Positions 7,258-10,066 of a DNA stretch of 10,066 bases are shown in pieces. The first letter of the stretch is position 1; each line of letters opens with the position of its first letter. The DNA is taken from IMG/VR virus record IMGVR_UViG_2551306491_000002, one strand, 5' to 3'. Made by a program: the position numbers and the translations under genes. The notes under the pieces are model-generated. The model did no database searches and was not told the DNA's origin. It saw only the letters and a list, made by a program, of their open reading frames with translations. The DNA comes from a virus (lineage: Duplodnaviria > Heunggongvirae > Uroviricota > Caudoviricetes).

Positions 7258-9229
7258 TTCCTGGTTCAGGATGCAGGCTGGTCACCAGAGTGACGCGGAT
7301 ATTTATATTTATGACGAGATTGGTTTCTGGGGTGTTACAGCGAAGCAGTTTATCAGTGATCTGAATGCACTGGGCGATATCACCCACATTAATCTCAATA
7401 TCAATTCACCGGGTGGCGATGTCTTTGAAGGCATCGCCATTTTTAATGCACTGAAAACACATGGTGCGTCCATTACCGTTTATGTCGACGGTGTGGCGGC
7501 GTCAATGGCGTCGGTCATTGCGATGGTGGGAAAACCGGTCATTATGCCGGAAAACTCCTTCATGATGATTCATAAACCATTTGGCTTTACGGGCGGTGAT
7601 GCGGAGGACATGCGCACCTATGCCGACCTGCTCGATAAAGTTGAGGCGGTTCTGTTACCCGCTTATGCACAGAAAACCGGGAAAACCACCGATGAAATTG
7701 CTGCCATGCTGGCGGATGAGACCTGGATGTCCGGTGCCGAATGTCTGGCACATGGATTTGCTGATCAGGTGACGCCAGCCGTTAAGGCAATGGCATGTAT
7801 TCAGTCAAAACGTACAGAGGAATTTAAAAAGATGCCGGAATCCATTCGAAACATGATTACTCCGCCACGCAACAGTGCTCCACGCGTACAGGATGATGGA
7901 CCTGCAGCCTCCCGGACGCCAGTGCAGGCAGCAGCACCTGTGGTGGATGAAAACAGTATCCGTGCGCAGGTACTGGCAGAGCAAAAAGCGCGTGTAAACG
8001 GTATTAATGATCTGTTTGCCATGTTTGGCGGGCGTTATCAGACGCTGCAGGCTCAGTGTCTTGCCGATCCTGAATGTTCGCTGGAGCAGGCCCGCGAAAA
8101 GCTGTTGAACGAGATGGGGCGCGAGTCCACGCCATCTAATAAAAATACCCCGGCTCATATTTATGCCGGAAACGGTAATTTTGTGGGGGATGGGATCCGC
8201 CAGGCGCTGATGGCGCGTGCCGGATTTGAAAAAACCGAACGTGATAATGTCTACAACGGGATGACCCTGCGTGAATATGCCCGTATGTCACTGACTGAAC
8301 GGGGTATTGGGGTTTCCAGTTATAACCCGATGCAGATGGTCGGTGCGGCGTTCACACACAGTACGTCTGACTTCGGTAATATTCTGCTGGATGTTGCGAA
8401 CAAAGCCATTCTGCAGGGCTGGGAAGATGCCCCTGAAACCTATGAACAGTGGACGCGGAAAGGTCAGTTGTCTGATTTTAAAATTGCCCATCGTGTGGGT
8501 ATGGGGGGCTTCAGTGCTCTGCGTCAGGTGCGTGAAGGGGCGGAATATAAATACGTCACCACCGGAGATAAACAGGCCACTATTGCACTGGCGACCTATG
8601 GCGAGCTGTTCAGTATCACCCGTCAGGCCATTATCAATGATGATCTGAATATGCTGACCGATGTCCCGATGAAACTGGGCCGTGCGGCGAAATCCACTAT
8701 TGCCGATCTGGTTTATGCCATTCTGACGTCTAACCCGAAAATCTCCACAGATAATGTAAGTCTGTTCGATAAAGCGAAACATGCAAACGTACTGGAGAGC
8801 GCTGCAATGGACGTGGCATCGCTGGATAAAGCCCGCCAGTTGATGCGCGTTCAGAAAGAGGGGGAGCGTCATCTGAATATTCGTCCTGCGTTCGTACTGG
8901 TACCGACGGCGATGGAGTCTGTTGCTAACCAGGTCATTCGCTCCTCAAGTGTCAAGGGGGCTGACATTAACGCCGGTATTATTAACCCGGTGAAAGATTT
9001 TGCGACCGTTATTGCAGAGCCTCGTCTTGATGATAACAGCCAGACCACCTTCTACCTGGCTGCGTCAAAAGGCTCCGATACGATTGAAGTGGCTTATCTC
9101 AACGGTGTGGATACGCCATATATTGATCAGATGGAGGGCTTCAGTGTGGATGGCGTGACAACGAAAGTGCGTATTGACGCCGGTGTCGCGCCAGTTGATC
9201 ACCGCGGTCTGGTGAAATGTACGGCGTAA
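7202..9229 (+). CDS. prohead protease (ClpP/S14-like) - scaffold-like linker - major capsid protein fusion
   Basis: 675 aa from GTG 7202 preceded by a perfect SD AAGGAGG (7190-7196); the ORF track begins this frame at TTG 7010 and an alternative ATG is at 7271. N-terminal protease motifs (SWFRM..DIYIYDEIGFWGV, INSPGGDV, GVAASMAS, MMIHKP), an Ala/Pro/Gln-rich middle, and a C-terminal ~350-aa capsid-like domain, all in one uninterrupted frame. Overlaps the portal 3' end by 56 nt. Confidence 0.85.
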   Translation: MPQRNDRSRSTPTTSPKNNSWFRMQAGHQSDADIYIYDEIGFWGVTAKQFISDLNALGDITHINLNINSPGGDVFEGIAIFNALKTHGASITVYVDGVAASMASVIAMVGKPVIMPENSFMMIHKPFGFTGGDAEDMRTYADLLDKVEAVLLPAYAQKTGKTTDEIAAMLADETWMSGAECLAHGFADQVTPAVKAMACIQSKRTEEFKKMPESIRNMITPPRNSAPRVQDDGPAASRTPVQAAAPVVDENSIRAQVLAEQKARVNGINDLFAMFGGRYQTLQAQCLADPECSLEQAREKLLNEMGRESTPSNKNTPAHIYAGNGNFVGDGIRQALMARAGFEKTERDNVYNGMTLREYARMSLTERGIGVSSYNPMQMVGAAFTHSTSDFGNILLDVANKAILQGWEDAPETYEQWTRKGQLSDFKIAHRVGMGGFSALRQVREGAEYKYVTTGDKQATIALATYGELFSITRQAIINDDLNMLTDVPMKLGRAAKSTIADLVYAILTSNPKISTDNVSLFDKAKHANVLESAAMDVASLDKARQLMRVQKEGERHLNIRPAFVLVPTAMESVANQVIRSSSVKGADINAGIINPVKDFATVIAEPRLDDNSQTTFYLAASKGSDTIEVAYLNGVDTPYIDQMEGFSVDGVTTKVRIDAGVAPVDHRGLVKCTA

Positions 9230-9252
9230 ACGTCGCAGACAACAACTCTGAT

Positions 9253-9272
9253 GGCCCGTAAGGGCTTTTTTT
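9253..9272 (+). terminator. short intrinsic terminator/attenuator after the capsid gene
   Basis: GGCCC (9253-9257) / GGGC (9262-9265) stem with GTAA tetraloop, followed by T7 run 9266-9272. Short stem, so possibly partial termination only. Confidence 0.35.
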
Positions 9273-9315
9273 GTACCTGAAATCAGCCCCTGAACGGGGC
9301 TGTGCGGAGACAGTT

Positions 9316-9639
9316 ATGGCAAAGAATTTTGTAGAAGAAGGAAAAACGGTGGCGATTGTTGCCAGTGCAGCCATCAGCAGCGGAGATCTGGTGCAGGTGG
9401 GCGATGTTTTTGCGGTGGCGCTGACCGATATTCCACAGGGTGAAACAGGCGACGGCATGACCGAAGGTGTGTTTATGCTGCCTAAGCTGAAAACGGATGA
9501 CATGAAAACGGGTAAGAAGGTTTATCTGAAGTCAGGAAAAGTTCAGCTGACTAACAGCGGCTCTGATCCGCTGGTCGGGGTTGTCTGGGCAGATGCCGGA
9601 ACCAGTGCAGAAGAAGTGCCGGTAAAACTCAATGTCTGA
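9316..9639 (+). CDS. small conserved head-associated protein (DUF2190-like; possible decoration/cement protein)
   Basis: 107 aa from ATG 9316 (SD GGAGA 9306-9310); ORF track frame 9271-9639. Located directly downstream of the capsid gene, the usual place for this small protein family. Function is inferred. Confidence 0.7.
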   Translation: MAKNFVEEGKTVAIVASAAISSGDLVQVGDVFAVALTDIPQGETGDGMTEGVFMLPKLKTDDMKTGKKVYLKSGKVQLTNSGSDPLVGVVWADAGTSAEEVPVKLNV

Positions 9640-9726
9640 TCCCTTTTCCCGGCTGGCAGCGCGTATGGATGCTATCACGGTCAGAAAGATGGGAAAGACA
9701 GCCTCGATTAATGATGTCGATATGAC
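9632..9726 (+). pseudogene. 5' fragment of the next head-morphogenesis gene, truncated by the IS insertion
   Basis: ATG 9632 overlaps the upstream stop (ATGTCTGA); 31 native codons (MSDPFSRLAARMDAITVRKMGKTASINDVDM), then the frame runs into the IS terminal repeat at 9727 and stops after 13 IS-derived codons. Identity of the gene is unknown. Confidence 0.35.
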
Positions 9727-9754
9727 TGAACCGCCCCGGTTTTCCTGGAGAGTG
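9727..9754. repeat. terminal inverted repeat of the IS element (right end, as oriented on the minus strand)
   Basis: TGAACCGCCCCGG... begins exactly where the interrupted phage gene loses its native reading; located 42 bp beyond the transposase stop (9769-9771 on the minus strand). Confidence 0.6.
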
Positions 9755-9768
9755 TTTTATCTGTGAAC

Positions 9769-10066
9769 TCAGGCTGCCAGATCATCGTTTCTGATGGAAG
9801 CATAATAAGCTTTTTCTGCTTCTGCCGGAGGGATATGACCCAGCCTTCCCAGCAATCGTCGATTGTTATACCAGTCCACCCACGTGAGTGTGGCCAGTTC
9901 CACTTCTGCACGGTTTTTCCAGCTCTTACGGTGTATTACCTCCGCTTTGTAAAGACCATTGATGCTCTCCGCCATCGCGTTGTCATACGAGTCACCTGTA
10001 CTCCCTGTTGATGCCAGCAGTTTTGCTTCTTTTTAGTCGCTCCGTATAGGCCAGTGATATATACTG
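9769..10066 (-). pseudogene. IS3-family transposase OrfB (integrase-core DDE domain), 3' portion, frame interrupted
   Basis: ORF-track 9769-9975 (-) extends in frame up to 10032, where it meets a TAA; the upstream part (9995-10066) is open in another frame and encodes ...QYISLAYTERLK. The two parts join into a canonical OrfB sequence (...TERLKEAKLLASTGSTGDSYDNA...) if one T is removed from the T5 run 10030-10034. Confidence 0.8.

Follow-up and report, generated by a model that had tools for sequence, protein, structure and literature searches.

A gpFII-like late gene probably interrupted by an IS629-type element in the Sp3/CP-933K prophage of Escherichia coli O157:H7

The 10,066-nt stretch of DNA analysed here (the window) is best explained by the transposition of an IS629-type element into a gpFII-like gene of prophage Sp3/CP-933K in the Z1486 lineage of E. 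coli O157:H7. The prophage was dead by then, the insertion would have knocked out the gene, and the lesion is most likely neutral and recent. We give this reading a probability of about 0.94. Comparison with the uninterrupted allele of strain EDL933 places the break directly after position 9726, and the first base of the IS is 9727, where the element starts with TGAACCGCCCCGG; from there on the window reads TGAACCGCCCCGGTTTTCCTGGAGAG.... The first-pass annotation, made from the letters of the window, described a frame that starts at 9632 and meets an IS terminal repeat at 9727 after 31 codons, and this description is exact to the base. The features around the junction are the following.

9316..9639, plus strand: intact head decoration/cement gene of 107 aa, the "small head protein" (PF09956, PHROG 122)
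9632..9639, plus strand: 8-nt start/stop overlap ATGTCTGA, read from the sequence; an equal arrangement is annotated in mEp460 and EDL933
9632..9726, plus strand: 5' remnant (31 codons and 2 nt) of the putative 91-codon gpFII-like gene (PF13856), identical to the first 95 nt in EDL933
9632..9766, plus strand: truncated read-through ORF of 44 aa (32 native and 12 IS-encoded residues) with stop codon TGA at 9764-9766
9724..9726, no strand: left copy of the 3-bp target-site duplication GAC, from EDL933 against Z1486; the right copy lies beyond the window
9727..10066, minus strand: right-hand 340 bp of an apparent 1310-bp IS629-type (IS3 family) element, 99.7% identical to O157:H7 loci; the window ends inside it and the full copy is in Z1486
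9727..9751, minus strand: right terminal inverted repeat (IRR), read as the reverse complement; TGAACCGCCCCGG at both ends
9769..10029, minus strand: 3' end of orfB, last 86 codons, with the C-terminal region of the integrase core (rve_3/rve_2), from translation (PF13683, E 1.3e-12; PF13333, E 3.7e-7)
10030..10034, minus strand: T5 run (A5 on the transposase strand) where other copies have T4, giving a +1 frameshift in orfB; the only difference from Z1486

Genome and prophage of origin

Over its full length the window equals the E. coli O157:H7 Z1486 genome (NZ_CP062749.1, 3849749-3859813, minus strand) except for one single-base length difference, which identifies the host as E. coli O157:H7; the type of IS had hinted at an O157 or Shigella background. 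Because of this one base, the window may derive from another assembly or isolate. The Z1486 sequence, CP062749, appears in the Data Summary of Microb Genom 7:000682 and is a closed long-read genome (PMC8743559).

The 48 kb around the locus in Z1486 contain a lambdoid prophage that starts beside ybhC and carries nleB2 and nleC, and the 46 kb around it in EDL933 contain a prophage between ybhC and ybhB with nleB2, nleC, nleH1-1 and nleD aboard. In the Sakai record, the matching locus carries the label "prophage Sp3, lambda-like phage", and Sp3 of Sakai is 100% identical to the window across the stretch that was compared (6000-9728). The EDL933 counterpart of Sp3 is, we take it, CP-933K. Judged by these matches, the window comes from Sp3/CP-933K in E. 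coli O157:H7, and shows the late region of this prophage. The reference strains of Sp3/CP-933K and the Z1486 lineage share the ybhC-ybhB location, the frameshifts in the portal and integrase genes, and the truncation of bet. The gpFII-like gene is intact in the reference strains, whereas in Z1486 it is interrupted.

Structure of the inserted element

The window ends 340 bp into the IS, and the second junction and the full duplication were read in the near-identical Z1486 genome. A look past position 10066 for the other IS end and the target-site duplication, as had been recommended, found both there: the copy at the identical site is complete, with a length of 1310 bp and GAC on both sides. 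Elements of the IS3 family measure ~1.2-1.55 kb and IS629 measures 1310 bp, the length of the Z1486 copy, of which the window holds the last 340 bp. The Z1486 copy has TG...CA ends (TGAACCGCCCCGG...CCGGGGCGGTTCA), whose outer 13 nt are identical and which pair imperfectly to ~25 nt.

The empty site in EDL933 reads ...GATATGACTGTGATCC... and the occupied site in Z1486 reads ...GATATGAC[IS]GACTGTGATCC.... Over a longer stretch, the empty site is ...GATGTCGATATGACTGTGATCCCGGG... and the occupied site is ...GATGTCGATATGAC, then the IS (TGAACCGCCCCGG...1310 bp...CCGGGGCGGTTCA), then GACTGTGATCCCGGG.... GAC stands on both flanks of the IS in Z1486 and once in EDL933, and the window includes the left copy alone. 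The right junction expected of a simple insertion would have the form ...CCGGGGCGGTTCA-GAC-TGTGATCCCGGG. Beyond the far end of the IS in Z1486, the intact rest of the same gene follows, in agreement with the proposal that this gene had been split by the element.

In the full Z1486 copy, orfA matches HTH_Tnp_1 (PF01527) and orfB matches HTH_21 (PF13276), rve (PF00665) and rve_3 (PF13683), and PGAP annotates a "programmed frameshift" together with an AL1L pseudoknot. With 1310 bp, TG...CA terminal repeats, a 3-bp duplication, an HTH_Tnp_1 domain in orfA and an rve DDE domain in orfB, all seen in Z1486, the element shows the defining features of its class and is, on this sequence evidence, an IS3-family element of the IS629 type, as the first-pass annotation had it. 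The window enters the IS at its right end (IRR), so the transposase lies on the minus strand, antisense to the late operon. A megablast search of 9727-10066 against 5,426 complete E. coli genomes returned 25,712 places in 4,138 genomes, annotated as IS3-family transposase, with a best identity of 99.7%, well outside what chance would give; IS629 is present in ~20 copies per O157:H7 genome.

The Z1486 copy at the gpFII-like site differs from two neighbouring IS1203-type copies at 61 of 1310 positions (~4.7%). This gap is similar in size to the differences of 4-5% between the sub-types of IS629, of which sub-type I (IS1203) and sub-type III both occur in O157:H7 (PMC3271280). According to the same study, IS629 generates duplications of 3-4 bp, and 62% of its copies lie in prophages (PMC3271280).

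The additional T in the copy carried by the window is absent from all other copies, in that none of the 25,712 places in complete E. coli genomes gives a perfect 340-nt match to the IS part of the window. It turns ...ERLKEAKLL... into a frameshift with an early stop, ~87 codons before the end of orfB and upstream of the DNAMAES motif, which we take to bear the third DDE residue in IS3-family enzymes. Two origins of the extra T come into question: a private mutation that inactivates the transposase, or a sequencing error in the homopolymer.

The interrupted gene

The interrupted gene starts with the ATG at 9632, still inside the preceding gene of 107 codons (9316-9639), whose TGA occupies 9637-9639. 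The product of this preceding gene matches Phage_cement_2 (PF09956, E 9e-21) and the head decoration family PHROG 122 (E 2e-47), and is named DUF2190 family protein by PGAP. The segment 9632-9726 is identical to the first 95 nt of the EDL933 gene for WP_001283153.1. EDL933, Sakai and dozens of further O157:H7 genomes have this gene in one piece (276 nt, 91 codons), and phages mEp460, cdtI, Ayreon, Tritos and others align up to the IS boundary with 98.8-99.4% identity. In Z1486, PGAP annotates the gene as a pseudogene with a missing C-terminus.

The intact 91-aa protein was compared with protein families and structures. It matches Pfam PF13856 ("Gifsy-2") with 63.6 bits (E 1.8e-17; cut-off 24.1), PHROG 153 ("minor tail protein") with 157.9 bits (E 9e-47), and, over residues 1-91, the Gifsy-2 crystal structure PDB 2PP6 (E 1e-19). 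The latter is a Gifsy-2 prophage protein, the founding member of PF13856, and aligns with the intact orthologue over the full length. The 44-aa remnant alone scores 14.4 bits against PF13856, below the cut-off of 24.1, as expected since it holds one third of the domain. Against PF05354, the family of lambda gpFII, the intact protein scores 19.2 bits (E 0.0018), below the gathering cut-off of 26; the label gpFII-like accordingly refers to the position of the gene and to a weak similarity, not to membership of PF05354. The two families are sister families, the gpFII-like protein belonging to PF13856 and lambda gpFII to PF05354.

In EDL933 and mEp460, the order of genes is ClpP-MCP fusion, decoration gene, gpFII-like gene, gpZ-like, U, V, G, T and H. 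Lambda gpFII (Phage_attach) is a similarly small protein, of ~117 aa compared to 91 aa here, and its gene occupies a like slot in the late operon, after the head/decoration genes and before the gpZ/U/V genes; FII lies between the head and tail genes of lambda, which matches the slot of the gpFII-like gene. Phage annotators have named the latter "head-tail joining" and "Hc1 head closure". We read the interrupted gene, from its position and its similarities, as one for a gpFII-like head-tail joining (head completion) protein and not as a capsid gene. The earlier description of a truncated head gene thus holds insofar as a real phage gene was hit, and is to be amended insofar as its product would act in head-tail joining rather than in the capsid.

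Databases carry several other names for the equivalent of 9632-9907: "DNA breaking-rejoining protein" (PGAP), "ATP-binding sugar transporter(-like)" (PF13856 and 2PP6) and "minor tail protein" (PHROG 153). These are likely legacy misnomers, as they fit poorly with the position in the late operon and with the weak similarity to gpFII.

The IS splits codon 32 after its second base, and 31 complete native codons precede it. Codon 32 (ACT) is kept by chance, because the IS starts with T. Translation would then continue into the element, which contributes the tail EPPRFSWRVFYL to the 44-aa product. This product lacks the 59 C-terminal residues of the native protein, some two thirds of its single domain, and the truncated gpFII-like protein has presumably lost its function. 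An exact look-up of the 44-aa fusion product returned no gene on record. On the far side of the element, PGAP annotates a 79-aa "DNA breaking-rejoining protein" (6182-6421 of a separate Z1486 extract) that starts at an ATC codon 56 nt inside the left end of the IS and runs into the 3' remainder of the gene. Expression of such a hybrid is improbable, and the entry more likely reflects an artefact of annotation by homology.

State of the prophage before the insertion

The portal gene (5748-7257) has a net gain of 1 nt at ~6771 relative to mEp460, which shifts its frame of 503 codons at residue 343; the portal frameshift claimed from the window alone is thereby located. At this site the window reads GTCTG-AGTTTTTCC where mEp460 reads GTCTGAATTTTTTCC or, in a shorter reading, GTCTG-AGTTTTT where mEp460 reads GTCTGAATTTTTT. 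The stretch is identical in EDL933, both portal fragments have the same protein accessions in EDL933 and Z1486, and a portal in two pieces is also annotated in DEC4E, PA11 and many other O157:H7 genomes. Since EDL933 and other O157:H7 strains have this lesion in common, it predates the IS insertion.

In both EDL933 and Z1486 the integrase gene is frameshifted, bet is truncated and the antiterminator gene is partial, and the annotation of both genomes places neither a repressor gene nor O/P genes between bet and ninE. The holin, endolysin, Rz-like, DUF1441 small terminase and large terminase genes are annotated as intact, in line with the earlier statement on the lysis cassette and terminase. 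Asadulghani et al. (2009) described Sp3 as devoid of repressor and replication functions, with further defects in integration, recombination and portal; in their experiments Sp3 neither circularised nor replicated, and it was not packaged (PMC2669165). When the IS arrived, the prophage was already dead, and the IS is consequently not the cause of its defectiveness. The view of a defective prophage, originally drawn from the IS and the portal frameshift together, is upheld by the portal, integrase and bet lesions and by the missing cI, O and P genes, without a causal part for the IS.

Proposed course of events

The integrase, repressor, replication genes, Bet and an intact portal were lost first, in the common ancestor of O157:H7 strains. 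In O157:H7 of the Z1486 lineage, a 1310-bp IS629-type element would then have transposed into the 91-codon gpFII-like gene, probably by the copy-out/paste-in route of the IS3 family. Its point of entry lies within codon 32, behind the second base; GAC was duplicated, and the transposase came to lie antisense to the late operon. The gene now ends after 32 native and 12 IS residues and would thus be knocked out. As the functions of Sp3 had been lost beforehand, we infer that the insertion is most likely selectively neutral, recent and lineage-specific.

Clustering of IS629-family insertions

Four insertions of the IS629 family, representing three subtypes, were found within 178 bp (9549-9727), a segment that takes in the 3' end of the decoration gene along with the first (5') third of the gpFII-like gene.

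9551, antisense: IS629-family insertion, duplication GAC, in NE1169-1 and NE1127
9613, antisense: IS629-family insertion, duplication GAAG, in PSS-11
9630, antisense: IS629-family insertion, duplication CTC, in FDAARGOS_1277 and CREC_5
9726, antisense: IS629-family insertion, duplication GAC, in Z1486

Among the 5,426 genomes, no other IS629-family insertion of either orientation was found in the equivalent of positions 6000-9548. If three further insertions were placed uniformly, all of them would land within 178 bp of the site in the window with a probability of ~(178/3728)^3, or ~1e-4, a post-hoc figure for four events. Around the four sites (within 25 nt), the terminal repeat has no match that stands out: the best ones are equalled in score by 23-95% of prophage positions. 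Base composition at the sites is ordinary (GC 0.53 vs 0.50). Elsewhere in the prophage, IS629 insertions are found in the terminase, tape-measure and tail fibre genes, and in the interval from the major tail gene to gpG. To our knowledge, the target choice of IS629 is currently described as unknown. That 9549-9727 forms a regional, orientation-biased hot spot for transposition of this family is a doubtful proposition at present. The local clustering is the sole element of this analysis that could add something new, on the basis of four events.

These insertions bear on the alternative that survives best, namely that the insertion was selected or is functional, for instance by altering transcription of the tail and nle genes, or that this stretch is a preferred target of IS629. 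Four independent antisense insertions of three subtypes, at 9551, 9613, 9630 and 9726, would agree with it, as would a terminator-like hairpin on the plus strand inside the IS, at 10005-10020. This hairpin, a match to the consensus, is antisense to the transposase and could exert polarity on the downstream tail genes. Against such a role, Sp3 is not induced and lacks a repressor, replication genes and a working integrase, and the effector genes lie >15 kb downstream. As to a preferred target, the cluster amounts to four events at sites without a repeat-like motif or unusual base composition, and other IS629 insertions are scattered through the prophage. We consider this alternative very unlikely, and nothing found here supports a selected or regulatory role.

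Neighbouring copies and rearrangements

Strain DEC4E (E. coli O157:H7) was considered as a fifth insertion into the gpFII-like gene, in the opposite orientation, and was rejected by base-level inspection. There, in 6133-7700 of the extracted region, an IS1203 lies in the tape-measure gene with duplication ATA, next to a deletion of ~4.8 kb. The other end of this deletion is at nt 199 of the gpFII-like gene, with microhomology GCG; the gpZ-like gene, U, V, G and T are gone, and H has lost its 5' part.

In Z1486, three copies of the IS629 family lie within the prophage or close to it, and all share one orientation (coordinates of the 48-kb region).

2564-3873: IS629-family copy at ybhH/ybhI
28727-30036: IS629-family copy in the gpFII-like gene
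43283-44592: IS629-family copy in the tail fibre gene

The outer two are of the IS1203 type and differ from each other by 1 nt, and each is 60-61 positions away from the middle copy. All three are absent from EDL933, and the copy between ybhH and ybhI sits outside the prophage. Copies in the same orientation could mediate deletions in Z1486.

The IS end at 9727 might accordingly be viewed as the mark of an IS-associated deletion or rearrangement, with the rest of the gene, and perhaps tail genes, missing from the source genome. The window does end inside the IS, DEC4E documents such an event at this locus, and the three copies in Z1486 could recombine. Yet the window equals Z1486 except for one homopolymer base, and there the insertion is simple, with GAC and an intact remainder of the gene, which makes a rearrangement highly improbable. 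A still smaller chance attaches to an assembly artefact, in which a contig would have been misjoined to a collapsed multi-copy IS. Such an error is conceivable for an element with ~20 copies per genome, and the homopolymer indel seen only in this IS copy suggests that sequence quality may be imperfect. An artefact would create no target duplication, and in the independent closed long-read genome of Z1486 both junctions are present, with 3 bp of the empty-site sequence perfectly duplicated (CP062749, PMC8743559); the artefact reading is therefore excluded. Finally, the notion that the frame at 9632 is no real gene, so that nothing was truncated, is scarcely credible despite the short residual ORF (44 aa) and a weak Shine-Dalgarno sequence, being ruled out by the PF13856, PHROG 153 and 2PP6 matches of the full-length protein and by a conserved gene that is intact in mEp460, cdtI and Ayreon and annotated at the equal position in these records and that of Tritos.

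Distribution and relation to known insertions

Transposition of an IS629-type element into the gpFII-like gene, the reading that we prefer, describes an event that is already known in kind and is annotated in the public Z1486 genome as a pseudogene beside an IS3-family transposase. Among 5,426 complete E. coli genomes this junction was found in Z1486 only, and the exact 29-nt junction pattern was absent from metagenome contigs. It resembles the IS629/IS1203 insertions of O157:H7 prophages in family, length (1310 bp), TG...CA ends, 3-4 bp duplication and preference for prophages; these are likewise strain-specific and inactivate phage morphogenesis genes. For example, an IS disrupts nu1 of Sakai Sp4 (PMC2669165). 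A catalogue of 2011 lists 47 IS629 sites (PMC3271280), and the site at codon 32 of the gpFII-like gene is missing from its Sp sites, which are without an Sp3 entry. The copy described here differs in being of a subtype ~4.7% away from IS1203 and, in the window, in having a private +1 frameshift in orfB.

Insertions of IS629 into O157:H7 prophages are textbook knowledge, and the biological weight of this one is small. It has a practical use as a lineage marker for IS-based strain typing, and illustrates how, in cryptic prophages with type III effectors, structural genes decay on while cargo genes persist.

Other features of the window

A minus-strand ORF of 132 aa at 414-812, between the DUF3927 gene and the holin gene, is hypothetical (WP_012578864.1); its comparison with Pfam gave a sub-threshold match to Sid-5 alone (18.9 bits). 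No gene is annotated in the ~675 bp at 2272-2945, which separate the lysis genes from the DUF1441 small terminase gene and are presumably the cos region; two ORFs at 2482-2787 and 2567-2956 gave no Pfam match. A scan of the window at the Rfam gathering threshold returned no match. Between the capsid fusion gene and the decoration gene, a terminator-like hairpin that matches the consensus is located at 9253-9266 on the plus strand (GGCCCGTAAGGGC followed by a T run), and the mEp460 record lists the corresponding element as a rho-independent terminator.
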